DNA from: Nannocystis pusilla
GTDB lineage: Bacteria > Myxococcota_A > Polyangia > Nannocystales > Nannocystaceae
NCBI RefSeq assembly: GCF_020073745.1
Contig: NZ_JAIRAU010000047.1
Coordinates: 285,990-349,989 of the forward strand
Direction of reading: 5' to 3'
Length of the DNA stretch: 64,000 nucleotides
The first letter of the stretch is position 1, and the number at the start of each line of letters is the position of its first letter. The translations under genes and the position numbers were made by a program. A model generated the notes under the pieces. That model was given only the letters and a program-made list of their open reading frames with translations, had not been told where the DNA came from and ran no database searches. Positions 2,215-61,766 of this stretch are shown here, piece after piece.

Positions 2215-2475
2215 GGAGATTCATCCTCTTTGAAACGTGTTCTACACACCTAGAACGCGTTTCATTTCCAGGCAAGAGGCCTACCTCGCGCGATGCCGAG
2301 CATTCCTGCTCGGACGCCCGTCTCAGCCGCCATCTCGCCCTCTCCGCCGCGGCCGACCGCCGCGATTGTCGCGCGCGAATCCGCCCCGCGCGGGGCCGAC
2401 CAGGCGAACCGGCGTCGGCATGCCCCGGAGGACATGTCCTTCAGGTCACTATCACATGTCCCGAGAGACAGCCCA

Positions 2476-8713: not shown

Positions 8714-9785
<1,072 letters not shown>

Positions 9786-9787
<2 letters not shown>

Positions 9788-9868
9788 GCATGTCCTCGAG
9801 AGCCTGTCGATACGCGCGTGTCCGTCCGGGCATGTCCCCGCGAACAGGCTCCTTCGCACATGTCCTCT
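9786..9868. repeat. six-unit phased palindromic array (14-bp period: ...gagCATGtcc / agCCTGtcg / gcgCGTGtcc / gggCATGtcc / gaaCAGGctc / gcaCATGtcc)
   Basis: CATG/CCTG/CGTG/CAGG cores fall at 9789, 9803, 9817, 9831, 9845 and 9859, exactly 14 bp apart. The array spans the malK stop and the MalE-F start. Confidence 0.85.
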
Positions 9869-12027
9869 GCCTCATCTTCGCCCTGCTCGCCGCCCTCGCC
9901 CCCGCCCGCGCGCGGGCCGACGACCTGCGGCTGTGGCACGCCTACCGCGACGCCGAGGCCGCCGCCCTGGTCGAGGTCGTCGAGCGCTTCAGCGCGGCCA
10001 CCGGCCACCGCGTCGAGCTGCTGGCCGTCGCCCACGAGAGCTTCGCCAGCAAGCTGGTGGCGACCATCCCGCGCGGCCAGGGGCCCGACGTCTTCATCGA
10101 CTCGCACGAGCGCCTCGGCGACTACCGCCAGCGCGCCCTCGTCGGCCCGGCGACCGCGGCGCTCGACGACCCCGCCGTCTACTCCGCGCAGTCGCTGGCC
10201 GCGGTCACCCGGGACGGCGTCGTCTGGGGCGTGCCGCTGAGCGCCAAGTCGGTCGCCCTGTTCGTCAACACCGGTCTCGTCGGACATGTCCCGAAGACCC
10301 TGGAGGAGATCGCCGCGCTGTCGCTGCCCGCCGGCGTCTACCCGCTCGCCTACGAGGCCCAGAGCGCCTACGGTCACATGCCGCTGCTTGCGGCCTTCGG
10401 CGGGCGCATGCTCGCCGAGGACGCCTCCTTCGGGTTCGTCGGACCGGCCGCCGAGCGCTCGCTGGCGTTCGCGCGCGAGCTCGCCGAGCGCGGCGCCGTC
10501 CCGCGCGACGCCGACGGTGCGCTGGTCGCCGACCTGTTCCGCAGCGGTCGGGCCGCGTTCGCGATCAGCGGTCCGTGGCTGGTCGGCGACCTCGCGCAGG
10601 TCCGCTTCGCCTGGCGCGTCATCCCGCTGCCCGTCGTCGCCGAGACCGGCCTGCCGATGCGCCCGCCGCTGACCGTCGAGGCCGCCATGCTGTCGCCGCA
10701 GGGCGCCGCCAAGCCGGCCGCGCTGGCCCTGGCCCGCGCTCTCGGCGGCGCCGACGCGGCCGAGCTGCGCCAGCGCCAGGCCGGCACCCTGTCCGTGAGG
10801 ACAGACGTACCTGTCCCCGAGGACAACCCCGTCCTCGCCGGCTTCCGCGCCCAGGCCGAGCTCGCCGAGCCGATGTCGGCCGACCCGGCGATGCGCTCGA
10901 CCTGGGAGCCGGCCTTCCGCGCGATCCGCAAGGTCCTGCGCGGCCAGGCCGACCCCGCCGAGGCCCTCGCCGAGGCCGCGCACCGCTTCGCCGACGTGCG
11001 CCGCCCCCCGCCGGCCGCCGCCTCGCCGACCCCCGCGCTGTTGCTGCTCGGCCTCGGCCTCCTGCTCGTCGCGTTCCACCTCGTCCGCCGCGCCCGCGAC
11101 CCCGACGCGCGCCAGGCATTGCGCCGCTCGCTGCCCGCCTACCGCTATGTCGCCCACAGCGTCGTCGTCGTCGGCCTGCTGGTGTTCGTCCCGCTGATCG
11201 TCGGCGCCGCCACCTCGCTGTTCGCCGGCCGCCCCGGCGAGGGCTACTACGTCGGCCTCGCCAACTTCGTCGAGATCCTCACCGCCCGCGGCGGCCCCCT
11301 GCTCGCCACCGGCTCGTTCTGGTTCGTCCTCCTCGTCACCTTCCTGTGGACGGCCGTCAACGTCGTCCTCCACCTCGGCATCGGCCTCGCGCTCGGCCTC
11401 GTGCTGTCGCGCCCGACCCTGCGCCTGCGCGCGCTCTACCGCGTGCTGCTGATCATCCCCTGGGCCGTCCCCAGCTACGTCACCGCCCTGGCGTGGAAGG
11501 GCATGTTCCACCAGCAGTACGGCGCCGTCACCGGCCTGATCCACGCCGTCAACGACCTGTTCGGCACCAGCGTCGAGCCGATCGCCTGGTTCTCGCGCTT
11601 CGCCACCGCCTTCGCCGCCAACGTCGCCACCAACGTGTGGCTCGGCTTCCCCTTCATGATGGTCGTCACCCTCGGCGCGCTCACGGCCGTGCCCGCCGAC
11701 GTGCTCGAGGCCGCCGAGGTCGACGGCGCCTCGCGCTGGCAACGCCTCACCCGCGTCACCCTGCCGATGATCCGCCCCGCCCTCGCCCCGGCCGTCACCC
11801 TCGGCGCGATCTGGACCTTCAACATGTTCAACGTCGTGTTCCTCGTCTCGGGCGGCGACCCCGACGGCGCGACCGACATCCTCGTCAGCGAGGCCTACCG
11901 CTGGGCCTTCACCCGCGAGGCCCAGTACGGCTACGCCGCCGCCTACGCCGTCCTGATCTTCCTGCTCCTGCTCGTCACCACCCGCCTGCCGGCCTGGCTG
12001 GCCCGCCGCTCGGAGGCCGCGCGATGA
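9832..12027 (+). CDS. fused maltose/maltodextrin-binding protein (MalE-like) and ABC permease (MalF-like)
   Basis: Single stop-free frame. Signal peptide 'MSPRTGSFAHVLCLIFALLAALAPARARA'. The MalE-like solute-binding domain is followed, without a stop, by a permease with the EAA-type motif 'EAAEVDGASRWQRLTRVTLPMIRPAL'. An alternative start at ATG 9784 overlaps the malK stop. The N-terminus is encoded by a 6-unit palindromic array. Confidence 0.7.
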   Translation: MSPRTGSFAHVLCLIFALLAALAPARARADDLRLWHAYRDAEAAALVEVVERFSAATGHRVELLAVAHESFASKLVATIPRGQGPDVFIDSHERLGDYRQRALVGPATAALDDPAVYSAQSLAAVTRDGVVWGVPLSAKSVALFVNTGLVGHVPKTLEEIAALSLPAGVYPLAYEAQSAYGHMPLLAAFGGRMLAEDASFGFVGPAAERSLAFARELAERGAVPRDADGALVADLFRSGRAAFAISGPWLVGDLAQVRFAWRVIPLPVVAETGLPMRPPLTVEAAMLSPQGAAKPAALALARALGGADAAELRQRQAGTLSVRTDVPVPEDNPVLAGFRAQAELAEPMSADPAMRSTWEPAFRAIRKVLRGQADPAEALAEAAHRFADVRRPPPAAASPTPALLLLGLGLLLVAFHLVRRARDPDARQALRRSLPAYRYVAHSVVVVGLLVFVPLIVGAATSLFAGRPGEGYYVGLANFVEILTARGGPLLATGSFWFVLLVTFLWTAVNVVLHLGIGLALGLVLSRPTLRLRALYRVLLIIPWAVPSYVTALAWKGMFHQQYGAVTGLIHAVNDLFGTSVEPIAWFSRFATAFAANVATNVWLGFPFMMVVTLGALTAVPADVLEAAEVDGASRWQRLTRVTLPMIRPALAPAVTLGAIWTFNMFNVVFLVSGGDPDGATDILVSEAYRWAFTREAQYGYAAAYAVLIFLLLLVTTRLPAWLARRSEAAR

Positions 12028-12074
12028 CCCACCGCCGACGCCCGTCTCGTCGCCCCCCGCCGACGCGTCCCTTC

Positions 12075-12127
12075 GAGCATGCCCCTGCGACCATGTCCTT
12101 CGGGTCATGCCCCTCACGACATGCCCT
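12075..12127. repeat. four-unit phased array of GMCATG(Y)CC units (period 14-15 bp) in the malF-malG intergenic region
   Basis: 'gagcatgcccc tgcga ccatgtcc ttcggg tcatgcccc tcacg acatgccc'. Confidence 0.8.
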
Positions 12128-12163
12128 GACGACCATCCACCCCGCCATCATCGAGGTCGGCCG

Positions 12164-13042: not shown

Positions 13043-13256
13043 CGGGCGAGCGAGCGCAATGATGGCACTGTGATGTTCGCCCGGAGGCCGCGGCCCCCAC
13101 GAAACACAATGCACATACCGGGCTTCGGCCCCACGAAACGCATCACGCTCGTTTTCGCCCCAGCATGCGTTCGGCAAATTTCACACCAGGCCGTGAATCC
13201 AACCCGCGGTCGCCGCATTCCAAGCCTGGAACTCTCAGCCCACCCTGGAGAATCTC

Positions 13257-15344: not shown

Positions 15345-15655
15345 GCGCCTGACGCTCGACGCCAGCGACACGACCCGGCCGGGCCCGCCCGGCCTGAGCG
15401 GGTCGCTGTCGCACACGCAGACCGCACGAAGCGAGCGCCTGTCGATCTTGCAACCTCCTCGCGTCTCCCGACCTGTCGAGCCCGCGACGCGGGATCGACC
15501 GGCTCGATCGCAGCGGATCCAGGGCGTTAAGCGACTCCTTGCCGCGGAGCGCCCCGCGGCGAGTCGACCTCGAGCGACCTCTCGCCGCCGCCGCGCGGAT
15601 GCGACCTGCCCGATGAGCCAGGCCCAAGCTCTGCACCTGTCCCAAAGACCAGCCG

Positions 15656-17944: not shown

Positions 17945-18290
17945 GGACATGCTCTCCAAAACATGTCCTCCAAAACATTATCGTAAGGACATGTCCTCGA
18001 CGGCCTCCTGCTCGCCCCTCCTTCGGCGCCCAGCGCTGCGCCGCCGGGCCCCCACTGCGCGGAGCGCCGCCTCGCTCGCCGCGCCGGGAAGGACTGGTCC
18101 TGCGCACCGACGCCGGCCGTTTGATGTCCACCATCCTCGTCATTCCCCGCCCGGCTCGAGCCACGCTCTCGCCGCTCGTGACGCCCCGCGACGACCTGTC
18201 CCGCCCGGACAGAGCGCCGCTCGCGTCGCTCTCGTGACCCCCGCGGCGCACCTGCTCCCCCGGGTTCGAGTCCCGCTCGCGTCGCCCGTC

Positions 18291-18806: not shown

Positions 18807-18926
18807 AGATCGCGGTCACGCGCCTGCGGCCCTGAATATTCCCCGGGAACCTCGCCGGGGCGGCGCTGTCTGCCGCTCCCGAGCGACGCGCGTGCGGCCG
18901 GTGGCGGCCGACCTGTCCGTCGCGAC

Positions 18927-19487
18927 ATGTCCATTTCGCCAGCTGACTCATCGCTGCCATCGGAGGACCCCGCCGTGCCCACCCGCAAGCCGCCCGAGGA
19001 AGAGACCGTCCAAGCCGACCTCCTGCCCGTCATGAACATCATGTTCTTGCTGATCCCCGCCTTGCTGCTGGCGATGGAGTTCGCCAGCATGGCCCAGATC
19101 TCGGTCGCCGTCCCGCGCACCGTCAGCGACGTGACCGCGCGGCCGAAGGATCCCGGCCAGCCCGAGCTCGGCTTCAAGGTGGCGATCGGCCGCGACGGCT
19201 TCCGCACCCGCTCCGGCGGCGCCGACGCCGGCCCGGGCACGATCCCCCTGAGCGGCGGCGCCTACGACTACGCCGCCCTCGCCGCCGCCGCCCGCGACCT
19301 CAAGCAGCTGTTCCCCACCGAGTCGACCGTCACAATCACCGCCGAGGGCGACGTGCCGATGGACGTCCTCGTCCGCACCATCGACGTCCTCCGCGGCGAC
19401 AGCTGCAAGCTCGGCGGCTGGGCCCGCGGCGAGCAGCCCGGCGACGGCTGCCTGTTCTGGACGCCGGTGATCGAGAGCGTCGGCTGA
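18927..19487 (+). CDS. ExbD/TolR-like biopolymer transport protein (tentative)
   Basis: 186 aa. Single N-terminal TM 'LLPVMNIMFLLIPALLLAM', similar to the ExbD signature, followed by a periplasmic domain. The start ATG lies inside a GACATGTCC palindromic unit. Confidence 0.4.
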   Translation: MSISPADSSLPSEDPAVPTRKPPEEETVQADLLPVMNIMFLLIPALLLAMEFASMAQISVAVPRTVSDVTARPKDPGQPELGFKVAIGRDGFRTRSGGADAGPGTIPLSGGAYDYAALAAAARDLKQLFPTESTVTITAEGDVPMDVLVRTIDVLRGDSCKLGGWARGEQPGDGCLFWTPVIESVG

Positions 19488-19858
19488 GCCCGCGGCTTCG
19501 AGCATCGCCCCCCGCGCCGTTGCCCGGGTGCTTTGGACATGTCTCACAAGACATGTCCATGAGAACATCTCATTGCCGGCCCAAGGTCCGCGCGGCCGCG
19601 TGCCCCGCAGGTCGCCTCACCTTGACGAGCAGTCTCCTGACGCCTCCGGGCCGCTGCAAGGCCGCCCACGCCGCCAGGTCGGGGGGCCCCGCAACGGGCG
19701 CAGCTTCACGCGACCTCACGCGTGCGCGAAGCGCGGCTCGCCCTTCCGCCCAGGCGCGAGGCGACGCTCGCGCTCGCGCGGCGAGCGGCGGCATTCGCCG
19801 CGACGCTGAATGAGGATCGCCGGCGCGCGTTCTCGCGCCCCGCGCGCGCTCGCGCGCC

Positions 19859-20292: not shown

Positions 20293-22821
20293 ATGATCGG
20301 ATCCCCGGAGCCTGGCGTGCGCAGCGGCTCGCGCCGAACCTCGCAAGCCGGGCCGCGGGCCGGCTGCTCGTGCGAGCTGCTGCTCTCGCTGTGCGCCGCC
20401 GACTCGGTCCAGGGCGTCCTGGCCGCCCACGGCCTCGACGTCGCCCGCCTGCGCGCCGTCGTCGACGAGCTCCACGCCGAGGTCGAGACCGAGCCGGCCG
20501 ACTGGCGCCTGCGGATCACCCAGCGCGGCGGTCGCGCCGCCGACCCCGACCTCGACCTCCTGCTCGCCCTCGTCCGCTCCGCCGACTCGCACGCCTACCA
20601 GCTGCTCGAGCGGGCCGGCGCCGCCTGCGGCGCCCTGCGCAAGCTGCTGATCGACCGCCTGCGCGCGCTCGAGGCCGCCGCGCTCACCGGGACAGGTCCC
20701 TCGCGCCATGTCCCATCCGGCATGTCCTCCGAGACAGCCCTGCCGCGGCGCCCCGTCGTCCAGCGCATGTCGACCATCGGCGCCGCCGGCGAGCGCCCGG
20801 TCCGCCGCTCGCTCGCCGACGCGCGCGCGAGTGACATGTCCCCGCGGACAGGTGCCGGCGACGCCCCGCCCCGCCCCGCCCGCGGCGGCGGCGCCCGCAC
20901 CTGGCCCGAAGGCCAGCCTGCCGCGCGCCCGGCCCGACCGACCGACGTCCGCACCTGGCCCGAAGACCACCCGGCCCGCGCCCGCCTCGACGCCCCCCGC
21001 GCCCGGCCCGAAGACCCGCGCGCGCCGACCCGCGCCCAGCCGCGCCTGCCCGCCCGCCCCGAGCCGGGCCGCGCCTCGGCCCTGGCCCTCAAGCCAGGTC
21101 CAGGCGCCCAGGTCGCGCCGGCCGGCGAGCCCGAGCCGCGCCCGGCCCCCGCGCCCCAGCCCGAGGCCCGCAGCCAGCGCCTGAGCCCGATCGACCCCTC
21201 GGCCCTGCCGCCGCTGCACGGCCGCGAGGGCGAGCTGGCGCGCCTCGCCGACGCCGTCCTGCGCCGCTCGCCGCGCCCGCCGCTGCTCGTCGGCCCGGCC
21301 GGCAGCGGCCGCACGCTGGTCGCCAAGCACCTCGCCGGCCTGCTGCACCAGCCGGTCTTCTACCTGTCCGCGACCCGCTACGAGGACGAGGACGGCCTGC
21401 GCGCCGACCTCGCCGCCGTCGCCAAGCAGGGCGGCGTCGCCATCCTCGACGACCTCGACCGCCTCGGCGGCGACGGCCCGCCGGCGCTGCTCGGCGCCCT
21501 CGCCAAGGCCTGGTCTTCGGGACAGCCGCCGATCGTCGCCGTCGCCTCGCCCGAGGGTCAGGCCCGCCTGTGCGCCTGGGCCCCCGGCCTGGCCGCCGCC
21601 CTCGACCTCGTCACCCTCCAGCCGCTCGAGGGCGACGACCTGCGCGCCGCCGTGGCCGCCGCCGCGCCCGCGGTGCTGGCCCAGCACGGCCTGTCTCTCG
21701 GGTCAGGTAGTCGCCTCGCCGAGCTCGTGCGCCTGTCCGACCGCTTCCTCGCCGGCCTGGCCCAGCCCGGCCGCAGCCTCGACCTGCTCGACCTCGCCTG
21801 CGCCCGCACCGCCCGCGAGGGCCGCGGCGCCGTCCAGCGCGACACCTGGATCGACATCGTCTGCGAGCGCAGCGGCGTCCCGCGCGAGCGCCTCGAGGGC
21901 CAGGGCCACCAGGACATGCTCGAGCTCGAGGCCGAGCTCGCGCGCAAGGTCGTCGGCCACGAGCACGCCCTCGCCGCCGTCGCCCAGCTGATCCGCAGGA
22001 ACCGGGCCGGCTTCGGCTCGCAGCGCCCGATCGCCACCGTCCTCCTGCTCGGGCCCAGCGGCGTCGGCAAGACCGAGATCGCCAAGGCCCTGTGCGGCGC
22101 CCTGTTCGACCGCCCCGACGCGTTCGTCCGCCTCGACATGAGCGAGTACGCCGAGGCCCACGCGGTCGCGCGGATCGTCGGCGCCCCGCCCGGCTACGTC
22201 GGCCACGAGCAGGGCGGCGCGCTGACCGACCCGCTGCTCAAGCAGCCGCACTGCGTCGTCCTCCTCGACGAGATCGAGAAGGCCCACCGCGACGTCCACC
22301 AGCTGCTGCTGCAGGTGTTCGACGAGGGCCGGCTCACCGACGGCCGCGGCCGCACCATCGACTTCCGCCACGCCGCGATCATCATGACCTCGAACCTCGG
22401 CGCCACCTGCCTCGACGCCACCGGCGACGCCCGCCTCGACGAGGCCCGCGTGCTCGAGGCCGCCCGCGCCGCCTTCCCGGTCGAGCTGTGGAACCGCATC
22501 GAGGCCCCGCTGGTGCTCCACCCGCTCGGCGGCGAGCAGCTGGCCCGGATCTGCGCCCGCCTGGTCCGCGCCTCCTCCGACCGCCTGCTGCGCGAGCGCG
22601 GCATCCGCTACCGCCTCACCGAGGCCGCCACCCGCCACGTCGTCTCGCTGTGCGGAAAGGACATGTCCCTTGGGGCACGTCCCTTGCGACATGTCCTTAC
22701 GCGCAGCGTCGAGGCCCTCCTGGCCGACGCGATCCTGCGCGGCCAGATCCGCGCCGGCATGCAGGTCGAGGTCGATCTCGACCACACCGGCGCGCTGTGC
22801 CTGCTGGCCTCGCGCGCCTAG
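20293..22821 (+). CDS. ClpA/ClpB-family AAA+ ATPase with degenerate first nucleotide-binding domain
   Basis: 842 aa. Clp_N-like N-terminus. D1 P-loop is 'GPAGSGRT' (Lys to Arg). D2 is canonical: 'GPSGVGKTE' and 'VVLLDEIEKAH'. A sensor-2 region 'GARPL' is present. A roughly 150-aa Pro/Arg/Ala low-complexity insert lies between the domains. Confidence 0.8.
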   Translation: MIGSPEPGVRSGSRRTSQAGPRAGCSCELLLSLCAADSVQGVLAAHGLDVARLRAVVDELHAEVETEPADWRLRITQRGGRAADPDLDLLLALVRSADSHAYQLLERAGAACGALRKLLIDRLRALEAAALTGTGPSRHVPSGMSSETALPRRPVVQRMSTIGAAGERPVRRSLADARASDMSPRTGAGDAPPRPARGGGARTWPEGQPAARPARPTDVRTWPEDHPARARLDAPRARPEDPRAPTRAQPRLPARPEPGRASALALKPGPGAQVAPAGEPEPRPAPAPQPEARSQRLSPIDPSALPPLHGREGELARLADAVLRRSPRPPLLVGPAGSGRTLVAKHLAGLLHQPVFYLSATRYEDEDGLRADLAAVAKQGGVAILDDLDRLGGDGPPALLGALAKAWSSGQPPIVAVASPEGQARLCAWAPGLAAALDLVTLQPLEGDDLRAAVAAAAPAVLAQHGLSLGSGSRLAELVRLSDRFLAGLAQPGRSLDLLDLACARTAREGRGAVQRDTWIDIVCERSGVPRERLEGQGHQDMLELEAELARKVVGHEHALAAVAQLIRRNRAGFGSQRPIATVLLLGPSGVGKTEIAKALCGALFDRPDAFVRLDMSEYAEAHAVARIVGAPPGYVGHEQGGALTDPLLKQPHCVVLLDEIEKAHRDVHQLLLQVFDEGRLTDGRGRTIDFRHAAIIMTSNLGATCLDATGDARLDEARVLEAARAAFPVELWNRIEAPLVLHPLGGEQLARICARLVRASSDRLLRERGIRYRLTEAATRHVVSLCGKDMSLGARPLRHVLTRSVEALLADAILRGQIRAGMQVEVDLDHTGALCLLASRA

Positions 22822-26946: not shown

Positions 26947-27821
26947 TGTCCGCCCCCGAGCTCGACCTCGGCCTCGCCGCCCTCCTCGGCGCCCTCCAGG
27001 GCGTGGCCGAGTTCCTGCCGATCTCCTCGTCCGGCCACCTCGCCCTGGCCCAGCGCGTCGCCGGCCTCGACGCCGGCGCCGGCGGCCACTCGTTCAACAT
27101 CGTCGTCCACGCCGGCACCCTGCTGGCCGTCCTGTTCCACTACCGCGGCGACCTGCTCGCGCTGGCCCGCGCCGTCTTGCGTCCGGGACATGTCCCCCAG
27201 CACATGCCCGATGCGCCAGGCTCGGAAGGACATGTCCCCTCGGGCAGCTCACCGAGCGACGCGCGAGCGCTGCTGCTCGCGCTCGTCCTCGGCACCTTGC
27301 CGCTGGCCGCCGCCCTCGCCCCGCCGGTCGAGAACCTCGTCATCGCCGCCGAGCACCACCCCCGGGCCATCGGCGCCTGCTTCCTCGTCACCGCGGCGAT
27401 GCTCGGCCTGGCCGAGTGGCTGACCCGCCGGCGCCGGAGCCCGCAGGAGGTCCCGCGGCCGCTGCAGGCGCTGCTCATCGGCCTCGCGCAGCTCGTCGCC
27501 ATCCTGCCCGGCATCTCGCGCAGCGGCTCGACGATCGCCGCCGCCATGGGCCTCGGCCTCGGCCGCCTGCCGGCCGCGCGCTTCTCGTTCCTGCTGGCGA
27601 TCCCCGCCATCCTCGGCGCCGCGCTCAAGGAGGCGCTCGACCTGATGAAGGAGGGCCTGCCCGCCGTCGACCCGCTCGCCTTCGTCGTCGGCTTCTTCGT
27701 CAGCTTCGTCGTCGGCGTCGCCACCCTGCGCGTGCTGCTGGTCCTGCTGGTCCGCGTCGGCGTGGTGCCCTTCGTGCCCTACCTCGTCGTCCTCGGCCTC
27801 GCCGTCCTCGCCCTCGGCTAG
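26946..27821 (+). CDS. uppP: undecaprenyl-diphosphate phosphatase UppP/BacA
   Basis: 291 aa. Conserved 'EFLPISSSGH' and 'PGISRSGSTI' motifs and 8 TM segments. The loop at 27181-27245 is encoded by palindromic units. Confidence 0.85.
   Translation: MSAPELDLGLAALLGALQGVAEFLPISSSGHLALAQRVAGLDAGAGGHSFNIVVHAGTLLAVLFHYRGDLLALARAVLRPGHVPQHMPDAPGSEGHVPSGSSPSDARALLLALVLGTLPLAAALAPPVENLVIAAEHHPRAIGACFLVTAAMLGLAEWLTRRRRSPQEVPRPLQALLIGLAQLVAILPGISRSGSTIAAAMGLGLGRLPAARFSFLLAIPAILGAALKEALDLMKEGLPAVDPLAFVVGFFVSFVVGVATLRVLLVLLVRVGVVPFVPYLVVLGLAVLALG
27185..27240. repeat. three palindromic units (GGGACATGTCCC, CACATGCCCG, GGACATGTCCC; core spacing 14 and 28 bp) inside the uppP coding sequence
   Basis: Direct reading. 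The units encode loop peptide 'RPGHVPQHMPDAPGSEGHVPSG'. Confidence 0.85.
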
Positions 27822-28196: not shown

Positions 28197-28236
28197 TAGA
28201 CATGCCCATCACGACATGCCCGTACGAGCATGCCCT
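28197..28236. repeat. three direct GACATGCCC units at 14-bp spacing, preceded by GTCCT-N7-AGGAC inverted repeat (28160-28178)
   Basis: 'tagacatgcccatcacgacatgcccgtacgagcatgccct', in the convergent uppP/queA intergenic region. Confidence 0.8.
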
Positions 28237-30732: not shown

Positions 30733-32445
30733 GTGGCAGTCTTGTCCCCCGTGGCGACCCCCCTGTCGGCCCTCTCGCTGATCGCCTGGCTCGCGCTCGC
30801 CGGCGCGGCGCCTGGCGGTCCGCGCATGTCCCTCGGCGCAGGTCCTGACGGCCAGGTGCGTTCGGGCATGTCCGAAAGTCCAGGCCCTCTGCTGGCCCTC
30901 GCGCCGGCCCGCGGCGGCAAGGCCAAGCCCCCCGCGCCCGAGCCCGCGCCGGCCCCCGCGCCGACCTACGGCCCCGAGCAGGCCCGCGCCGACATCGAGC
31001 TCGTGCTGACCGGCCGCGGCCAAGACTACCTGCAGGCCCGCGCGCGGCTCGAGCAGCACCCGACCGTCGCCGCGCCGCTGGTCACCGCGCGCATGACCGC
31101 CACGCCCGCGCCCACCGCGGTCGAGCAGCGCCGCCTGCTCGCTCTGCTCGGCGGCATCGCCCGCCCCGAAGACGTCCCGCTGTTCGCCGACGCCATGCGC
31201 CGCGACGTCGCCGCCGCGGTCAAGCAGTCGCAGGAGCAGGGCATCGAGCTGCCGGCCGCCGAACCGTGGCGCGAGATCTTGCGCGCCCAGGGCCCGGCGG
31301 CCGCGCCCGCGCTCACCGGGCTCGTGGCCGAGAAGTCGTTCAGCGAGGAGCTGCGCGGCCTCTTGCTCGCCGACCTCGTCGCCGTCACGCCGGCCGACAA
31401 GCTGCCCGAGCTCGTCGCGCTGGTCGGCCTCGGCACGCCGAGCCTGCGCGCCGCGCTGCGCCAGGCGATCGCCCGGCGCGCGCACGCGTCCGCCGGCGAG
31501 CGGGCCCAGCTCGTGCAGGTCGTCGACGCCGCGATCGAGGCCGGCGAACCGGCGCGCCTGCCCGGCCTCGTGCTGCTGCGCGCCGCGATCGGCGGCAGCG
31601 ACGACGCTCCGTTCACCCGGCGCGCGGCCGCCCTCGCCGAGGACGCCGCCGCCGAGTTCGCCGCCCGCGTCGCCGCGCTCCGCGTGCTCGTCGCCCGTCG
31701 TAGCGACCCCGCGGCGCAGACGGTGCTCGCGCGCCTCGCCGAGCAGCACCTGCCCGCCGACAAGCGCGTCGAGCTGCGCAGCGAGATCCTCGGCAGCCTC
31801 GCCCTCGCCGGGCTCGAGCCCGGCCCTGCCGCCGCCGTCGTCGACCGCCTGCAGCTCACCGGCGCCGACGCGCCGCGGGTCGCCGTCGCGGCCTTCTCCG
31901 TCGCCACCCTGCCGGCCGACGGCGCCTGGCTCGACGTCAGCCAGCGCCACGCCTGGCCCGAGGTCCGCGCCGCCGCGCTCGCCCGCGTCGACGGCCCGTG
32001 CTCCGCGGGCGTCCTCCGCCGGCTGCGCGACGGCACCAGCACCTCCGGCAACACCTTCGAGGCCGACGCCGCCGTCGCGCGCGAGGTCATCGCCGCGCTC
32101 GGCCGCTGCGGCGGTCCCGACGCCTTCGCCGCGCTGCAGGCCGTGGTCGTCAGCGCCGAGCAAAACGTCGACCGGCGGGCCGAGGCCGCGCGCCAGCTCG
32201 TCGACCGCCACGGCAGCGCCGGCGCCGACGTCGTCGCCGCCGTGCTGCGCAGCACCGACGACCTCGCGGTCGCGCTCCGCCTCGTGCGCGCCCTGCAGCG
32301 CTACGCCGACGACGAGGCGGCCCCCTCCGACGACGTGCGCACGGCCCTGTGCGCCGCGAGCAAGCGCCAGGAGCTGGCCACGATCGCCCAGCGGGCCGTC
32401 CGCGGCCTGTTCCCCGACCTCGACGACCCCTGCGCGGGCAACTGA
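30733..32445 (+). CDS. hypothetical protein, probable HEAT/ARM-like helical repeat protein
   Basis: 570 aa, Ala/Leu/Arg-rich with repeated helical hairpins. The N-terminal 50 aa are encoded by a 5-unit 14-bp phased palindromic array, so the true start may be the internal ATG at about 30866. Confidence 0.4.
   Translation: MAVLSPVATPLSALSLIAWLALAGAAPGGPRMSLGAGPDGQVRSGMSESPGPLLALAPARGGKAKPPAPEPAPAPAPTYGPEQARADIELVLTGRGQDYLQARARLEQHPTVAAPLVTARMTATPAPTAVEQRRLLALLGGIARPEDVPLFADAMRRDVAAAVKQSQEQGIELPAAEPWREILRAQGPAAAPALTGLVAEKSFSEELRGLLLADLVAVTPADKLPELVALVGLGTPSLRAALRQAIARRAHASAGERAQLVQVVDAAIEAGEPARLPGLVLLRAAIGGSDDAPFTRRAAALAEDAAAEFAARVAALRVLVARRSDPAAQTVLARLAEQHLPADKRVELRSEILGSLALAGLEPGPAAAVVDRLQLTGADAPRVAVAAFSVATLPADGAWLDVSQRHAWPEVRAAALARVDGPCSAGVLRRLRDGTSTSGNTFEADAAVAREVIAALGRCGGPDAFAALQAVVVSAEQNVDRRAEAARQLVDRHGSAGADVVAAVLRSTDDLAVALRLVRALQRYADDEAAPSDDVRTALCAASKRQELATIAQRAVRGLFPDLDDPCAGN
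30821..30885. repeat. five-unit 14-bp phased array (CATGTCC / CAGGTCC / CAGGTGC / CATGTCC / CAGGCCC) at the 5' end of the HEAT-like gene
   Basis: Cores at 30824, 30838, 30852, 30866 and 30881. Confidence 0.8.
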
Positions 32446-32447: not shown

Positions 32448-33728
32448 ATGGCCACCGACAAGCCCAGGCTCCGCAAGGTCGAGCGCATGGCGCTGCAGCG
32501 CGGCGACGAGGCGCTGATCGTCCTGCGCGACCCGACCGGTCTCAGCGAGCAGGTCGCCTTCCCCCAGGAGGCCTCCGTCATCCTCGACGCGCTCGACGGC
32601 CAGCGCACCGTGCCGCAGCTGCGCCAGTCGCTGGCGATGCGCGGCATCATCGACATCCCGCTCGCCGACCTCGAGGCGCTGGTGCGCGACCTCGAGAGCG
32701 CCGGCTACCTCGACGACGACGCCTTCCGCGCCCGCTGGGAGGCCATCCACCGCGAGTTCCTCGCCAACCCGGTCAGGCGGCCGCGCTGGGCCGGCCTGCT
32801 CTACCCCGACGACCCGGTTGCCCTCGCCGCCGCCCTGGCCGCCGCACTACCTGACCCTTCGGCCAGGCTCGCCGACACCAGCGACACCCTCGGCGTGCTC
32901 CTGCCGCACCAGCCGCTGCCGGGCACCGGCGCCGCCCCGCCCGAGGCCGCCGTCCACGCCGCCGCCGGCCTCGGCGACGAGGTCCTGCGCGGCCTGCCGC
33001 GCGCCCGCGACATCGACCTCGTCGTCGTCCTCGGCACCGACTACCACCCCGGCCTGCAGCCGTTCGTCATCACCGACAAGCGCTACGCCACCCCGCGCGG
33101 CGAGCTGGCCAGCGACCCGGCGCTGGTCCGCGCGCTCGACCGCCGCCTGCCGTGGATCCGGCGCGAGGAGATCCGCCACCGCGAGGCGCTGAGCCTCGAG
33201 CTCGCCGCGGCTGTCCTTCAGCACCTGTACGATGGAGCATGTCCTCCGGTACTCCCGGTGCTGTGCGGGCCCGGCGCGATCGAGCTCGACGACGGCGGCC
33301 CGGTCGAGGGCTTCCTCGCCACCATGGAGCATGTCCTCGAGGACAGGCGCGTGCTCTGGTGGGTGACCGCCGAGCTCGGCCACGAGGGGCCGGCCTACGG
33401 GCGCGCGCCGCTGACGCGGGAGCGGGCCGCCGCCCTCGTGGCCCGCGATCGGGCCTGCCTGGCCGCTCTGGCCGACGCGCGGCCCGAGCAGCTGGAGCGC
33501 TGCTGCAAGGGCGTCCCGGGCCTCGACCCGCCGAGCGGCACCGCGGCCCTCGTCACCGCTGCGCGTCTGTTCCCTGTCGGCTACGGGGCCGACCTCGTCG
33601 CCTACGCCTCCGGCCGCCCGGTCGGTCCCGACGACGGGTGGGTCGGCCTCGGCGGGGTCCGCTTCACGCGGCCCGTCGACCTCGGCGACGACGACGACTT
33701 CAGACCCGCGAGCCTGCGAGCCTCATGA
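32448..33728 (+). CDS. fusion protein: N-terminal PqqD-like RRE domain and MEMO1-family domain
   Basis: 426 aa. N-terminal 'ALIVLRDPTGLSEQVAFPQEASVILDALDGQRTVPQLRQSL...LVRDLESAGYL' fits the PqqD/RiPP-recognition-element pattern. The C-terminal part aligns to MEMO1/AmmeMemoRadiSam-B landmarks ('LLPHQPLPGTG', 'VVLGTDYH', 'YATPRGEL', 'WWVTAELGHEG'). Confidence 0.5.
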   Translation: MATDKPRLRKVERMALQRGDEALIVLRDPTGLSEQVAFPQEASVILDALDGQRTVPQLRQSLAMRGIIDIPLADLEALVRDLESAGYLDDDAFRARWEAIHREFLANPVRRPRWAGLLYPDDPVALAAALAAALPDPSARLADTSDTLGVLLPHQPLPGTGAAPPEAAVHAAAGLGDEVLRGLPRARDIDLVVVLGTDYHPGLQPFVITDKRYATPRGELASDPALVRALDRRLPWIRREEIRHREALSLELAAAVLQHLYDGACPPVLPVLCGPGAIELDDGGPVEGFLATMEHVLEDRRVLWWVTAELGHEGPAYGRAPLTRERAAALVARDRACLAALADARPEQLERCCKGVPGLDPPSGTAALVTAARLFPVGYGADLVAYASGRPVGPDDGWVGLGGVRFTRPVDLGDDDDFRPASLRAS

Positions 33729-35210: not shown

Positions 35211-35240
35211 AAGGGCCATGACCGCGAGGTCATGGCCCTT
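35211..35240. terminator. perfect 13-bp-stem hairpin AAGGGCCATGACC-gcga-GGTCATGGCCCTT between convergent genes (candidate bidirectional terminator)
   Basis: Direct reading. It lies between the lipoprotein stop (35178) and the HU-like gene stop (35299). It is followed by imperfect direct repeats 'gggacag...caggagcgcgagccgg' at 35255-35318. Confidence 0.5.
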
Positions 35241-35298
35241 CATTCATGACCTCTGGGACAGGAGCGCGAGCCGGCTGCCATGTCCCGCGGGACAGCTC

Positions 35299-35940
35299 TC
35301 AGGAGCGCGAGCCGGTGCGCGCGTGGGCGCGGCGGCCCGGCACGTCGGCGCGCTGCATCGGCGCCGGCGGCAGCTCGAGCCGCGGGTCGGCGGGCTGGCT
35401 GCGGCGCAGCACGTCGAGCGAGACCTCGTCGAACTCGTCGTCGACGTCGTCCTCCTCGAGGTCCTCGCGCGCGGTGAAGCGGCGGCGGAGGATCAGCGCC
35501 TCGTCGGCCTCGTCGCCGAGCTCCTCCTCGTCGACCTCGTCGAGCTCGGCCGGATCGGCGCACGGCGGCTCGAGCTCGAGCTGGGCCGGGCCGGCGCGCC
35601 GCTTGCGAGCCGCGGGGGCGGACTTGCCGGCCGGGGCGTTGAGGCTCGCACGCAGCTCGACGCCCGGGCGGAAGTCGATCGTGAAGGCCGCGTCGATCGT
35701 CATGGGCTCGAGCGTCCGCGGGTTGACGCCCTTGCGAGCCGAGCGCTTCTTCTTGGTGAAGGTGCCGAAGCCGGGGAACGTGAAGCGCGGGCTCTGGGCC
35801 CGCGTCACCCTCGCCTTGACGAAGTAGGCGGCCATCTCCCCGAACGCGATCTCGAGGATCTGCTGCACGCACTTCTTCGTGATGTCCGGCGGCAGATCAC
35901 GGTTGCGTGCGATTTTTTCGATGAGTTCAGCCTTCGTCAT
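35299..35940 (-). CDS. HU/IHF-family DNA-binding protein with long charged C-terminal extension
   Basis: 213 aa. N-terminal 90 aa match the HU fold ('MTKAELIEKIA', 'GFGTFTKKKRSARKGVNPRT'). The C-terminal 120 aa form an acidic/Ala/Arg-rich tail. Confidence 0.7.
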   Translation of the reverse strand: MTKAELIEKIARNRDLPPDITKKCVQQILEIAFGEMAAYFVKARVTRAQSPRFTFPGFGTFTKKKRSARKGVNPRTLEPMTIDAAFTIDFRPGVELRASLNAPAGKSAPAARKRRAGPAQLELEPPCADPAELDEVDEEELGDEADEALILRRRFTAREDLEEDDVDDEFDEVSLDVLRRSQPADPRLELPPAPMQRADVPGRRAHARTGSRS

Positions 35941-37802: not shown

Positions 37803-39108
37803 TCAGTTCGTCGCCGCCAGCGCGTCGAGCAGCCAGGCCGCCAGCGCCGCCTTGGCGATCGGCGGGCCCGACGCGCGCACGGCGATCGCGTCGCCGTCGC
37901 GCGCCAGCAACAGGCCGGCGTTGGTCGCCGACGCGAAGCCGACCCCGGGCGCGCCGACGCGGTTGACGAAGATCGCGTCGGCGCCCTTGGCCCGCAGCTT
38001 GGCCGAGCCGAGCCGGATCAGCTCCTGCTGCAACCTGTCCTCGGGGCCATCCTCGACCGTCTGCGCGGCGAACCCGAGGAAGCGCGAGCGCGGGGCGCCC
38101 GGCGCCGCGCCGCGGCCGAAGCGGACCGTGAGCGCGGCGAGGATGTCGGGCGCGGCCCGCCAGGCGAGCGTCGGCAGCGTCGCCAGCAGCTCGGCCTTCT
38201 CGAGCTTGCGCGCGGCGCCGCCGTCGATCTCGAGGTCTTGCACCGCCGCGACCATGGCCACCCAGTCACATGGCCCTTGAGACAGCTCGTTCTCCAGCGC
38301 CGCCTGCATCTCGGCCGCGGTCTCGACGTCGACGCGGCGCACCCCCGCCGGCGTGGCCAGCTCGACCGGTCCGGCCACCAGCGTCACCGCGGCGCCGGCG
38401 CGCTGGGCCGCCTCGGCCAGCGCGAAGCCCATCGCCCCGGTCGACGCGTTGGTGACGAAGCGGACCGGATCGATGTACGTGCGCGTCGGCCCGGCCGACA
38501 CCAGCACGCGCTTGCCCGCCCACGGCCCGCGGCCGACGCCGAGCCGCGCCAGCGCGGCGGCGACGATCAGCGGCGGGTCGATCATGCGGCCCTCGCCGAT
38601 CCACCCGCACGCCAGCTGCCCGCGATCGGGCCCGACGAACTCGGCCCCGCGGGCGCGCAGTGTCGCCAGGTTGTCCTGCGTGGCCGGGTGGCGCCACATG
38701 TTCGTGTTCATCGCCGGCGCCCACAGCACCGGCGCGCGCGTGGCCAGCAGCACCGTCGCGGCGAGGTCGTTCGCCAGGCCGTGGGTCGCGCGCGCCAGCA
38801 GGTCGGCGGTGGCCGGCGCGACGACCACCAGGTCGGGCCAGTCGGCGAGCTCGATGTGGCCGACGTGGCCCTCCTCCTCCGGGTCGAGCAGGCGCGTGCG
38901 CACCGGCCGGGTCGACACCGTCGCCAGCGACAGCGCGCTGACGAACGCCTCCGCCGCCGGCGTCATCACCACCTGGACCTCGCAACCGGCGGCGACGAAC
39001 GCCCGCACCAATTCCGGCGCCTTGTAGGCCGCGATCCCGCCGCTGACGATCAGCAGGACGCGACGGCCCCGCGGACGTGTCCCATGGGACATGTCCGTGG
39101 CACCAGCC

Positions 39109-40273: not shown

Positions 40274-41029
40274 TTAGCTGTTCTTGGAGACAGGTGCTTC
40301 GGGACAGGGCGCTTCGGACCTGTCCCCGGAGTCAGCATTCACGTCGGCCGCGGCGGCGTAGCCGGCCGCGGCGTCGAGGTAGCCGGCGCGGACCAGGGCC
40401 TCGCGCGTGACCGCGGGCGCGGCGGCCCGGCCGGCCTCGGCCCCGGCGCCGAGCAGGCGGGCGACGTAGCGCGCCAGCAGGTCGACCTCGAGGTTGAGCG
40501 CGTCGCCCACCTTCAGGTCGGCCAGGGTCGTGGCCGCGAGCGTGTGCGGGATCAGGCCCACGGCGAACCCACGCGGGTCGACCGCGTTGACCGTGAGGCT
40601 GACGCCGTCGACGCACACGCTGCCCTTGACCGCGATGTAGCGGGCCAGCTCGCCCGGGACGTCGAACCACATCTCGACCGCGTCGCCGCGGGCGACCCGG
40701 CTGCGCACGCGCGCCAGGCCGTCGACATGGCCGGACACGAGGTGGCCGCCGAGCGCGTCGCCGAGCCGTAGCGCCGGCTCGAGGTTGACGCGGCTGCCGG
40801 GCCGCAGCTCGCCGAGGGTGGTGACCGCGAGCGTCTCGAACGCGGCTTCGACGGTGAAGTCGCCGGCGGTCGAGGCGACCACGGTGAGACACACGCCGGA
40901 GATCGCCACGCTGGCGCCGAGGCTGCGATCGCCCTCCGACAGCGCGTAGCGGATCACGAAGGTGCGTCGCTGCGCGCCAGGGATCACGCGCTCGACCGTG
41001 CCGACGCCGCGCACGAGGCCGGTGAACAT
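40274..41029 (-). CDS. ribE: riboflavin synthase alpha subunit with atypical C-terminal tail
   Basis: 251 aa. 'MFTGLVRGVGTV' start and two lumazine-binding repeats. The last 45 aa ('...ADSGDRSEAPCPEAPVSKNS') are encoded by palindromic repeat units. Confidence 0.8.
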   Translation of the reverse strand: MFTGLVRGVGTVERVIPGAQRRTFVIRYALSEGDRSLGASVAISGVCLTVVASTAGDFTVEAAFETLAVTTLGELRPGSRVNLEPALRLGDALGGHLVSGHVDGLARVRSRVARGDAVEMWFDVPGELARYIAVKGSVCVDGVSLTVNAVDPRGFAVGLIPHTLAATTLADLKVGDALNLEVDLLARYVARLLGAGAEAGRAAAPAVTREALVRAGYLDAAAGYAAAADVNADSGDRSEAPCPEAPVSKNS

Positions 41030-45730: not shown

Positions 45731-46713
45731 TAGGTGCCGAGCTTTAGCACATCGAGGTCCGCCGGGGAACCGACGGCGGCGAGCGAGAAGCCCTTGTCGA
45801 TGCGTTTAATCAAGTTGCAGAGCACTTTGCCGTGCCCGAGCTCGAGCCCGCGAGAGATATCCATGCGTATCACCGTTCGCACGGACGCCTCCCAGCGGAC
45901 GCGGCCGGTGATCTGACGAACGAGTCGATCGCGGACGTCCTGCGGCCCGCCGCTCGTCGGATACGGCTCGGCATCGACGTTCGCGATCACGGGCGCACGC
46001 GGCGCGGCGATGTCCATCGTCGCCAGCGCCTCGGCCACCCGCTCGGCCGCGGGCCGCATCAGCGCGCAGTGGAACGGCGCCGACACGTTGAGCTTCATCG
46101 CTCGCGCCTTGCTCTCCTTGGCGCGCGCGACCACCCGCTCGACCGCCGCCGCGTGCCCGGCGATCACGATCTGTCCGCCGCCGTTCTCGTTCGCGGGGCT
46201 CACGACCTCGCCCCCGGCGCTCGCTTCTTCGCACCACTGCTCGAGCGCGAGCGGGTCGGCGCCGATCACCGCCGCCATCGCGCCCACGCCCGCGGGCACG
46301 GCCTCTTGCATGGCGAGCCCGCGCAGGCGCACCAGCTTGACCGCGTCGACGAACGCCAGCGCGCCCGCGGCGACCAGCGCCGAGAACTCGCCGAGGCTGT
46401 GACCGAGCAGCGCGGCCGGCTGCAGCCCGAGCTCGCTCGTGACCACCGTCCACGCCGCGATGCTGCAGGTGAGGATCGCCGGCTGGGTGTTGGCGGTCTG
46501 CGCCAGCGCCTCGGCCGGGCCCTCGAAGCACAGCCGCGACAGCGGCTCGCCGAGCGCGTCGTCGGCCTCGGCGAACACGCGCCGCGCGGCCGGGAACGCC
46601 TCGGCCAGCGCCTTGCCCATCCCGGGCTCCTGGCTGCCCTGACCGGGGAACAGGAACGCGAGCGGCCGGGCGACCCCAGCCGAGGAGCTGTCTGAAGAGA
46701 CATGTTCGTTCAT
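45730..46713 (-). CDS. fabD: malonyl CoA-ACP transacylase FabD
   Basis: 327 aa. '[14 protein letters not shown]' and active-site '[14 protein letters not shown]'. The start codon lies in a palindromic unit array. Confidence 0.85.
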
Positions 46714-59187: not shown

Positions 59188-59503
59188 GGCGAAGGTATCC
59201 TTGAACGTGGTGGCGCGCCCTTCCAGGACGGGCACGCCGCTGCCGCAGCGGCGCGCGCGCGGAATGACGTGAATCAACCGGGCCACGATTTCGGACTTCG
59301 CCGCAGGATCAAGCGTCCACCGACCTGGTGCCTTCAAACCATGCCTGACGACGATCGTGGCAAATCTGCGCCCGCAGAGGCGCTGCCGCCGCGCGCCGCT
59401 CGTTCGCTACTCCAGCGACCGCGAACCTTCGATCCGGACAACAGAGGCGCAGACTCCGCCGCAGCTGCAGAGACTGCCATGAATCAACTTCATCGCCTGT
59501 CCT

Positions 59504-61708: not shown

Positions 61709-61766
61709 GCGCGCACCGCCGCGCGCGCCGCAAGCTGACTATTCGGACATGTCTCTCAAGACATGG

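Follow-up and report, generated by a model that had tools for sequence, protein, structure and literature searches.

The window analysed here, a 64,000-nucleotide stretch of Nannocystis pusilla DNA, contains a group of mal genes in which two gene junctions are occupied by arrays of short palindromes:

8714..9787, plus strand, malK-like ABC ATPase gene, an open reading frame whose TGA stop (9785–9787) abuts unit 1 of the array
9784..12027, plus strand, fused malE-malF gene (solute-binding protein plus permease), with in-frame ATGs at 9784, 9790 and 9832
9786..9865, unstranded, flagged array of six 14-nt units, each a palindromic 10-mer plus a 4-nt spacer
12061..12126, unstranded, five-unit array within an insert of ∼140 nt between malF and malG

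The malK orthologue in the called genes carries ABC_tran and OB_MalK domains. The six-unit array pointed out at the malK/malE junction in a preliminary description of this DNA is real: its units lie in phase at 9786–9865, extend from the stop of malK into the beginning of the fused malE-malF gene, and read, in order, GAGCATGTCCtcga GAGCCTGTCGatac GCGCGTGTCCgtcc GGGCATGTCCccgc GAACAGGCTCcttc GCACATGTCCtctg, with an exact 14-nt period. Measured against the decamer GGACATGTCC, units 1, 4 and 6 are good copies (1–2 mismatches) and units 2, 3 and 5 degenerate ones (3–4 mismatches). A nested imperfect palindrome runs across the array, with units paired 1:6, 2:5 and 3:4, and three compensated deviations common to units 2 and 5 can be read from the sequence. 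The RNA fold computed for 9775–9880 has an energy of −39.5 kcal/mol (z −2.6), and the antisense strand folds equally well (−39.0).

The same description held that the only ATGs available to start MalE-F are internal to units. This applies to the in-frame ATGs at 9790 (given there as 9789) and 9832, and not to the one at 9784, which overlaps the malK stop as ATGA and belongs to no unit. The ATG of unit 6, at 9860, is out of frame for MalE, and from the ATG candidates to the signal peptide's hydrophobic core no GTG or TTG start occurs. The MalE start in three relatives is an ATG overlapping the malK stop (ATGyTGA), and in these same relatives array-like units fall within the coding sequence of the MalE signal peptide; the unit-encoded peptide H-V-L is present in the relatives' signal peptides. 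Because the relatives start at the overlapping ATG, the non-unit ATG 9784 is most likely the MalE start in the window as judged from sequence, with 9832 as the alternative. The reading frame from the ATG overlapping the malK stop is closed in N. exedens, and the MalE start has therefore moved there; it must be either the unit ATG 1148 or the GTG 1193.

The second array lies in an insert bounded by CGATGA at 12022–12027 and again at 12162–12167. In four relatives the stop codon of malF and the start codon of malG overlap and the array is absent. The conserved MalG start is ATG 12164 (MSPSGQGR), and the in-frame unit ATG at 12107 is not the conserved start. Transposition with target duplication was considered for this insert, but one of the sequences compared, L108, duplicates the same malF/malG junction plainly over 57 nt, so that the CGATGA flanks are ambiguous as a mark of insertion.

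The flagged array is one copy of a large family of short palindromic repeats. The repeat unit consists of the 10-nt palindrome GGACATGTCC and a free 4-nt spacer, and two arms around such a spacer make up the basic palindrome, at most 24 nt long, (GGACA)TGTCC-N4-GGACA(TGTCC); because the 10-nt arms are themselves palindromic, successive elements join head to tail into arrays of 2–7 units whose period is exactly 14 nt. In the window the exact decamer occurs 9 times (0.11 expected), copies with at most two mismatches 81 times (27 expected) and TGTCC-N4-GGACA 10 times (0.03 expected), and the distances between the copies with at most two mismatches are 14 nt (15 cases), 28 nt (6) and 42 nt (4), with hardly any others. 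Family-wide spacing was counted in a sample of 892 kb of Nannocystis DNA, where TGTCC-Nx-GGACA was found 243 times as N4, 3 times as N3 and twice as N5, and GGACA-Nx-TGTCC 266 times as N0 and twice as N1; the core-to-core distance was 14 nt in 264 cases and 13 nt and 15 nt in one case each.

The spacers are near random in sequence, adjacent ones being identical in 2.2% versus 0.9%. Recent tandem duplication as the main origin of the arrays was rejected on the same count, since only 2.2% of adjacent spacers are identical. A conserved end tag or flank was absent, every flanking position reaching at most 39% for any base and the downstream profile being flat. A miniature transposon of the MITE type was likewise rejected, with only the 10-nt core conserved and flanks and spacers near random, and CRISPR repeats, iterons and DNA-uptake sequences are ruled out by period, copy number and strict phasing. 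Conservation within the unit is base-specific and peaks at C4 and G7; a stable hairpin by itself would demand much less rigidity in loop length and much less conservation of the bases C4 and G7. Units contain one ATG and no stop codon in any of the six frames, and are therefore translatable and able to donate start codons. No match in the window reached the gathering score in Rfam 15, and the searchable literature held nothing on GGACATGTCC in bacteria, on Nannocystis repeats or on myxobacterial REPs; the family is apparently previously undescribed. Its copy number would, by extrapolation, be a few thousand in Nannocystis genomes of 11–13 Mb.

The window holds these further arrays and elements:

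2416..2461, unstranded, array past the stop of a minus-strand gene ending at 2476, kept in Nannocystis sp. RBIL2 (four units)
17945..17996, unstranded, four-unit array with the third unit degenerate, directly following the stop (17944) of a chloride-channel-like gene
18909..18932, unstranded, two-unit array upstream of an ExbD-like gene, with ATG 18927 as its likely start codon
19535..19572, unstranded, three-unit array between convergent genes, fold −22.1 kcal/mol, z −3.7
20690..20727, unstranded, three-unit array within the domain-free N-terminal part of a ClpB-like open reading frame, orthologous and near-identical in N. exedens
20832..20855, unstranded, two-unit element, exact TGTCC-N4-GGACA
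27186..27251, unstranded, units inside the BacA/UppP coding sequence, each translated G-H-V-P
28198..28235, unstranded, three-unit array of the variant GACATGCCC, between convergent genes
30822..30887, unstranded, five-unit array upstream of a HEAT-like gene, with unit ATGs 30826 and 30868 in frame
33327..33350, unstranded, two-unit element in a Memo-like open reading frame, exact TGTCC-N4-GGACA
35214..35299, unstranded, two adjacent arrays between convergent genes, fold −52.6 kcal/mol, z −4.3
39073..39096, unstranded, two-unit hairpin at the junction of the ribBA stop and the coaBC start, fold −25.4 kcal/mol
40288..40325, unstranded, three-unit array lying upstream of minus-strand ribBA, at the preceding gene's 3′ end
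46684..46707, unstranded, two degenerate units at the FabD junction, translated E-H-V and not a start codon
49333..49370, unstranded, three-unit element near the 5′ end of open reading frame 49188–53243, exact TGTCC-N4-GGACA
49605..49656, unstranded, four-unit element within the same large open reading frame (49188–53243), exact TGTCC-N4-GGACA
59493..59530, unstranded, three-unit array in an intergenic gap between tandem minus-strand genes
61745..61768, unstranded, two-unit array at a junction of tandem minus-strand genes, with a T10/A1 compensated pair

The array at 17945..17996 folds at −18.2 kcal/mol (z −4.0), and the matching site in N. exedens holds TGTCC-ttcg-GGACA hairpins. N. exedens also keeps one unit of the array upstream of the ExbD-like gene (18909..18932) and has an array at the site matching 19535..19572. 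In the window's own array at 19535..19572, GGACATGTCTcacaAGACATGTCC gives a perfect 10-bp stem that includes one compensated change. Within 35214..35299, the inverted repeat GGCCATGACCgcgaGGTCATGGCC is perfect and includes two compensated changes. The units in BacA/UppP sit in a hypervariable loop insert that is exclusive to Nannocystis and is itself unit-encoded. Three in-phase units at 22659–22696, which could be taken for an array invading a conserved domain of the ClpB-like gene, were dismissed as mostly coincidence plus one residue, because D-x-S-L-G-A-R-P-L-R-H-V-L is conserved in relatives.

The placement of the arrays was determined on a gene map made with our own codon-usage caller rather than an annotation; its stops agreed with called genes wherever the two were comparable. 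The family marks the 3′ ends of genes, chiefly just past their stops and above all between convergent genes. Arrays of at least two units are 77% intergenic, versus ∼20% of the DNA, and their density per kb is 6.2 in convergent gaps, 1.1 in tandem gaps and 0.7 in divergent gaps; most loci were chosen for holding a perfect doublet, and counts without those doublets are weaker and point in the same direction. Perfect doublets number 60 in convergent, 31 in tandem and 1 in divergent gaps, and the occupancy of convergent gaps by arrays is high. Within tandem gaps arrays lie a median of 26 nt after the upstream stop and 162 nt before the next coding start, and ∼20% of 3′ ends carry an array versus 4% of 5′ ends, a roughly five-fold difference. 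Some arrays are also found inside coding sequence or in divergent gaps. The arrays are not followed by a T tract (T frequency at most 0.34 at each downstream position), a consensus scan of 20 kb for canonical hairpin-plus-T-run terminators gave one, not at an array, against 2.6 expected, and canonical sigma-70 promoters were no more frequent than by chance.

The family is essentially confined to Nannocystis, a myxobacterial genus: 103 perfect doublets were found among 185,579 species genomes, and all but about three of them belong to Nannocystis species or to metagenome bins of Nannocystaceae/Myxococcales; the scan gave no perfect doublet for the family's other genera. The same junctions hold arrays in N. 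exedens and in Nannocystis sp. RBIL2 with differing unit numbers and sequences; the arrays thus keep their orthologous places although their units are replaced in number and sequence. The core of the unit is kept across species though the neighbouring intergenic DNA diverges.

Doublets fold at −18 to −33 kcal/mol (z −3.2 to −6.5), and their loop-side halves are better kept (0.91 and 0.88) than the outer halves (0.73 and 0.76). Folding of the sense and antisense RNA (47 versus 43 arrays) gave no advantage to the sense strand, and we do not claim a strand-specific, RNA-only element, the energies of the two strands being alike. The sense strand does show an excess of G:U over A:C (96 versus 60), which could stem from a mutation bias linked to transcription. 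A deviation in one unit is compensated in the adjacent unit in 15.5% of cases, versus 8% at random and 7% inside the same unit. Neighbouring units share identical deviations (15–21% versus 8.8%) with as much enrichment as complementary ones, and covariation therefore does not single out pairing and is suggestive of it rather than a proof. Complementarity reaches 1–2 nt past the core (0.46 and 0.40 versus ∼0.27).

By analogy, the closest known kind would be the REP/BIME elements, minus their tag. REP, BIME and REPIN sequences are short imperfect palindromes (20–40 nt) of very high copy number in Enterobacteria and Pseudomonas; they are extragenic, typically past stops, between convergent genes or within operons, and occur singly or in regularly spaced clusters, with conserved stems, variable loops and a lineage-specific distribution (PMC3733652, PMC2817692). 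The Nannocystis doublet is likewise a 24-nt palindrome able to form a stem-loop, and the arrays are likewise high-copy, mainly extragenic, regularly spaced and lineage-specific. They differ in being without an unpaired GTAG or CGTC end tag, in having 10-nt arms that are perfect palindromes with exact 14-nt tiling, so that orientation is meaningless, and in having a loop fixed at 4 nt and units that are readily translated. REP elements also flank a cognate tyrosine transposase gene (RAYT); a tblastn search for one, a weak test with unverified IS200 TnpA and E. coli RAYT queries, found none in the 892 kb covered. The classic example of REP function is itself a mal operon junction, namely the stabilisation of malE-malF mRNA in E. 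coli.

Other known systems are more distant in one respect or another. Rickettsia palindromic elements (RPEs) also add peptide segments as in-frame palindromes, comparable to what is seen in the MalE signal peptide and in the loop of BacA, but they are 100–150 bp long, resemble mobile elements and are conserved over their full length, whereas the Nannocystis repeat has a 10-nt core with free spacers and is mostly extragenic. HIP1 of cyanobacteria (GCGATCGC) is likewise a lineage-specific, far over-represented short perfect palindrome; it is scattered over coding and non-coding DNA without fixed phasing, whereas the decamer of Nannocystis keeps strict phase and is found mostly between genes, close to their 3′ ends. 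Intrinsic terminators share a G+C-rich hairpin shortly past the stop and the ability to function both ways between convergent genes; the arrays, in contrast, are without a T/U tract, have identical stem sequence and loop length everywhere, and in many copies lie within operons or overlap start codons. The met-boxes of MetJ are short palindromic boxes placed head to tail at a fixed period and read cooperatively by a dimeric protein, and the Nannocystis boxes are also head to tail and fixed in period; met-boxes, however, lie in few promoters, whereas the arrays are extrapolated to number thousands, behind genes.

With slightly more than even confidence, we favour a reading of the repeats as a REP/BIME-like, nearly Nannocystis-only family that forms two-way structures at gene ends and for which the supply of start codons is incidental. 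Two adjacent units in any transcript or single strand would form a 10-bp stem with a 4-nt loop, the same on both strands, and, as has been suggested for REP/BIME, such elements might serve at transcript 3′ ends as barriers or stabilisers, or else as weak terminators or as DNA-topology sites; their function at gene ends we infer from position alone. The conserved decamer and rigid spacing would imply a sequence-specific factor that recognises or maintains the elements. At the malK/malE junction, the array follows the malK stop and has become part of the malE-malF 5′ end; its units can be translated as the initial, loosely constrained stretch of the MalE signal peptide, and they can donate start codons.

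A different reading, which we regard as possible at a clearly lower probability, is that the units are duplex-DNA sites, with TGTCC-N4-GGACA as the operator, for an abundant, sequence-specific dimeric protein that marks gene ends; the protein would bind cooperatively at 14-bp tandem sites in a nucleoid, topology or roadblock role, and hairpin potential would be incidental. Extremely rigid spacing (N4 243, N3 3, N5 2) around a spacer of free sequence is consistent with such a site, as are base-specific conservation that is strongest at C4 and G7, unlike a stem-stability pattern, folding without strand asymmetry, and arrays that change sequence yet keep their place, as selected binding sites would. 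Half-site centres 9 bp apart, as in TGTCC-N4-GGACA, are typical of helix-turn-helix dimers. Thousands of sites behind stops would, however, be unusual for a bacterial DNA-binding protein, and the compensation between adjacent units and the complementarity past the core speak against this reading, although a symmetric protein could yield the latter. We think it rather unlikely that the arrays are the DNA or RNA half of a dedicated, Nannocystis-specific system for marking gene ends, in which a sequence-specific protein would bind TGTCC-N4-GGACA sites and polymerise along the 14-bp-phased arrays past stops. In a genome largely without canonical terminators, such a system would bring transcription to an end or release the supercoiling that builds up between convergent genes. 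It would amount to a code for termination or topology that is read by a protein across the whole genome, which would set it apart from REP/RAYT biology.

It is less probable again that the arrays are selfish or mutation-driven DNA without host function, which arises and expands locally by slippage, quasi-palindrome template switching or a putative mobilising enzyme and persists where it is least harmful, whether past stops, between convergent genes or in coding loops that tolerate it. The ∼140-nt malF/malG insert is missing in four relatives, the BacA insert is hypervariable and unit numbers differ at orthologous sites; the slight excess of identical neighbouring spacers (2.2% versus 0.9%) and of deviations shared within an array points to some local duplication, and the order convergent over tandem over divergent is that expected from purifying selection against promoter disruption. 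Most spacers are nevertheless unrelated, so the arrays derive neither from the copying of a master element nor from recent duplication, and they are without conserved flanks, terminal repeats or tags. The core is, moreover, kept across species amid diverging intergenic DNA, convergent gaps are highly occupied, and the tblastn search for a transposase, a weak test given its unverified queries and the 892 kb covered, gave none.

The preliminary description had listed several genes whose start the units would supply. The ExbD-like gene bears this out, its ATG 18927 lying in the unit CGACATGTCC as the sole candidate upstream of the coding signal, and so does CoaBC, whose minus-strand ATG 39092 is in frame within a perfect unit, has TTG 39116 as the lone alternative and is likely the start. 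For the HEAT-like gene the candidates at 30826 and 30868 (30866 in that description) are also in units and in frame. For RibBA the ATG (40271–40269) coincides with no more than half a unit (GACATGAGC), and the array at 40288–40325 is upstream of it; the FabD ATG 46713 is a non-unit ATG, the nearby unit GAACATGTCT being translated E-H-V.

More generally, the proposal that units supply starts holds in so far as unit ATGs fall at starts or N-termini beyond chance, and is not supported as a reason for the arrays, given their 3′-end placement. For unit ATGs at most 120 nt upstream of the coding-potential start in high-scoring genes, the three frames, with the gene's own frame first, were represented 29:13:14 (p = 0.014), and a separate count near gene starts gave 51:20:19; just downstream of stop codons the frames were even (145:135:149). 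Among 605 genes, 21 have a unit ATG as their nearest upstream start candidate and 8 have it as the sole one, and about 1–3% of genes seem to start in a unit. Start-codon supply is thus a real but secondary effect, a by-product of array position rather than the purpose of the family, and the arrays may plausibly influence translation coupling.

That the arrays exist mainly to provide Met-Ser start contexts, tuning initiation or coupling at operon junctions, is very improbable: the in-frame bias near gene starts (51:20:19 and 29:13:14), the ExbD and CoaBC starts that are most likely unit ATGs, the N. exedens MalE start that must be unit ATG 1148 or GTG 1193, and the candidate start codons covered by hairpins are outweighed by arrays that are ∼5 times commoner at 3′ than at 5′ ends, by a peak density between convergent genes, where nothing starts, by tandem-gap arrays that hug the upstream stop, by the low share of genes with a unit ATG as nearest (21/605) or sole (8/605) candidate, and by a MalE start that in relatives overlaps the malK stop and a MalG start that is not the in-frame unit ATG.

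The arrays bear directly on annotation, as they create long open frames and in-frame ATGs that lead to wrong N-termini (for example 12107 before the MalG start at 12164), and they blur operon boundaries. Rigidly phased decamers behind genes, in genomes seemingly without ordinary terminators, offer a tractable test of how transcript ends or DNA topology are set, in a genus that is a natural-product producer. They are also a natural case of a repeat remodelling protein N-termini, as in the MalE signal peptide and its start shifts between sister species, and protein loops, as in BacA.

The array at the malK/malE junction is real and forms the visible tip of a far larger feature, an abundant family of phased palindromes that is associated with the ends of genes and occurs in essentially no genus other than Nannocystis. 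The unit is 14 nt long, comprising a 10-nt palindromic core (GGACATGTCC) and a 4-nt spacer; two or more in-phase units form an array, and two units a doublet. The genes and arrays discussed below are as follows (window positions).

8714–9787, malK-like ORF, stop codon TGA at 9785–9787
9784–9870, sequence of the malK/malE array, read directly: gcgcATGAgcATGTCCtcgaGAGCCTGTCGatacGCGCGTGTCCgtccGGGCATGTCCccgcGAACAGGCTCcttcGCACATGTCCtctg
9784–12027, malE-malF fusion gene (maltose-type solute-binding protein plus MalF-type permease), a single ORF
12022–12167, malF/malG insert (roughly 140 nt), a five-unit array with CGATGA at both borders
26940–27821, BacA/UppP gene with a loop insert, units at 27186–27251

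The malK/malE array consists of six units from 9786 onwards, each exactly 14 nt (10-nt core plus 4-nt spacer), with 1–2 mismatches to GGACATGTCC in units 1, 4 and 6 and 3–4 in units 2, 3 and 5; the coordinates in the preliminary description were correct to within 1–2 nt. It is predicted to fold into a nested hairpin pairing units 1:6, 2:5 and 3:4 (−39.5 kcal/mol, z −2.6), and three deviations in units 2 and 5 are mutually compensated. The MalE-MalF fusion is a conserved feature of Nannocystaceae and of Sorangium.

Exact copies of GGACATGTCC occur 9 times in the window (0.11 expected), copies with up to 2 mismatches 81 times (27 expected), and the alternative register TGTCC-N4-GGACA 10 times (0.03 expected). 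Distances between units are 14, 28 and 42 nt and hardly any others, giving about 25 arrays of 2–6 units. When 185,579 species, each represented by one genome, were scanned for pairs of perfect units separated by 4 nt, 103 places were found, all but about three of them in Nannocystis (exedens, pusilla, punicea, bainbridge, radixulma, sp. RBIL2 and several metagenome bins), one Nannocystaceae bin and one Myxococcales bin. Protein matches assign the window itself to Nannocystis; the closest are from N. radixulma (BacA 96% identical), followed by N. exedens (MalE-F 91%). No published description of the family was found in the literature searched, and there was no Rfam match in the window.

Across 892 kb (the window plus fetched Nannocystis loci), the geometry is rigid. 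Cores are separated by 14 nt in 264 cases and by 13 or 15 nt once each; TGTCC-Nk-GGACA occurs 243 times with k=4, 3 times with k=3 and twice with k=5, and GGACA-Nk-TGTCC 266 times with k=0 and twice with k=1. The spacer itself is near random. Within doublets the spacer-facing halves are the better conserved (0.91 and 0.88, versus 0.73 and 0.76 for the outer halves), with C4 and G7 the most conserved core bases. It follows that the basic element is a palindrome, at most 24 nt long, with a free tetranucleotide at its centre; it can tile because its arms are themselves palindromic. Array sizes drop steeply, from 245 doublets and 41 triplets to 29, 19, 4 and 1. REP/BIME sequences of enterobacteria are the nearest known elements. 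Unlike them, the Nannocystis family has no tag (no base exceeds 39% at any flanking position around arrays in the 892 kb), a transposase has so far not been found, and the self-palindromic, strictly phased architecture is unusual.

Gene calls came from a scorer of codon usage for which the window served as training set; their stops match the genes called on L001 (a fetched locus). Intergenic DNA makes up only about 20% of the sequence and holds 77% of arrays. Density per kb of gap is 6.2 for convergent, 1.1 for tandem and 0.7 for divergent gaps (3.3, 0.73 and 0.67 without the perfect doublets by which loci were selected); the perfect doublets are distributed 60, 31 and 1. Arrays in tandem gaps lie a median of 26 nt past the upstream stop and 162 nt ahead of the next coding-potential start. 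With the selecting doublets left out, an array is present at 20% of 3′ ends and at 4% of 5′ ends; for the window alone, which was not array-selected, the figures are 28% and 17%, and all the 5′-end arrays there sit at tight operon junctions and are simultaneously at 3′ ends. Canonical terminators were at or below chance, and no T tract was found downstream of arrays. Simple consensus scans of 9001–29000 (20 kb) gave no sigma-70-type promoters and a single terminator-like site, counts that do not exceed those expected from shuffling. The gene-boundary signals of this genome appear to be non-canonical.

Adjacent units are predicted to fold into a 10-bp stem with a 4-nt loop (−18 to −33 kcal/mol per single doublet or triplet). 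The adjoining unit compensates for a deviation in 15.5% of cases versus 8% at random, with clear examples at 19535 (T10/A1) and 35214 (GGCCATGACC/GGTCATGGCC), and complementarity between units reaches 1–2 nt past the core. Pairing as the whole explanation is countered by four observations: identical deviations in neighbouring units are enriched equally to compensated ones, predicted folding is the same for sense and antisense strands, the fixed loop length and base-specific conservation go beyond the needs of stem stability, and most spacers are unrelated between units, so no master element has been copied to give the arrays. We conclude that a sequence-specific factor is probably involved, that hairpin formation in the transcript would, on the folding predictions, be physically unavoidable, and that the selected property may be either a site for such a factor or the hairpin.

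The window and N. exedens share array positions (malK/malE, the chloride-channel 3′ end, cupin/exbD, the exbD 3′ end and 20690), with differing unit numbers and sequences; at malK/malE there are six units versus four. The array at 2416 is retained in Nannocystis sp. RBIL2 although its flanks diverge. Four relatives lack the malF/malG insert, and the stop and start codons there overlap in ATGA or GTGA; in a fifth (L108) this junction is simply duplicated over 57 nt. The BacA/UppP loop insert is found only in Nannocystis, spans about 18–100 residues depending on species and is rich in unit-encoded G-H-V-P and G-H-A-P; in other genera the protein has 275 residues and no insert.

The preliminary description proposed that units supply start codons, including every candidate for MalE-F. 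The in-frame candidates are ATG 9784, 9790 and 9832 and no others (ATG 9860 is out of frame); the latter two lie inside units, but 9784 overlaps the malK stop as ATGA. In three relatives (L106, L107 and L109) MalE starts at an ATG overlapping that stop (ATGyTGA), and unit-like sequences within the signal-peptide coding region give ...(Q/A/G)-H-V-L. The window keeps this arrangement, with the frame from 9784 open across the entire array. In N. exedens a TGA closes the frame from the overlapping ATG, so MalE must start at unit ATG 1148 or GTG 1193. The array thus reshapes the N-terminus of MalE from one sister species to another. The core contains one ATG and no stop codon in six frames, and since 14 is 2 modulo 3, any three-unit array puts an ATG into each frame. 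Close to coding starts, unit ATGs show an in-frame excess over chance (51:20:19), as do units strictly upstream of high-scoring genes (29:13:14, p=0.014), versus 145:135:149 for control units downstream of stops. Among 605 genes, the start candidate closest upstream is a unit ATG in 21, and in 8 it is the sole candidate. Start-codon supply is a genuine but minor by-product.

Several further repeats were seen in the window. Three in-phase units (22659–22696; predicted fold −32.9 kcal/mol) lie inside a ClpB-like D2-small domain and encode D-M-S-L-G-A-R-P-L-R-H-V-L, most of which is a protein motif conserved among relatives; only the Met is window-specific. A 56-nt repeat (18146–18305, 2.5 copies) upstream of the cupin gene holds a rare TGTCC-N5-GGACA variant. 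The minus strand carries 9.2 copies of a 57-nt unit (36959–37486, within ORF 36157–37788) that encode a 19-residue repeat N-terminal to an apparent family-4 uracil-DNA glycosylase domain. It also carries three apparently paralogous tandem genes of about 550–650 residues each (53406–59406), at least two of which have the unit-like GGACATGTCG about equally far from their 3′ ends. The A+T-rich inverted repeat TTTGAAACGTGTTCTACACACCTAGAACGCGTTTCATTT (about 2232–2270), located upstream of the minus-strand gene 832–2220, looks like a putative operator, because it is nearly unchanged in Nannocystis sp. RBIL2 while the intergenic DNA around it diverges.
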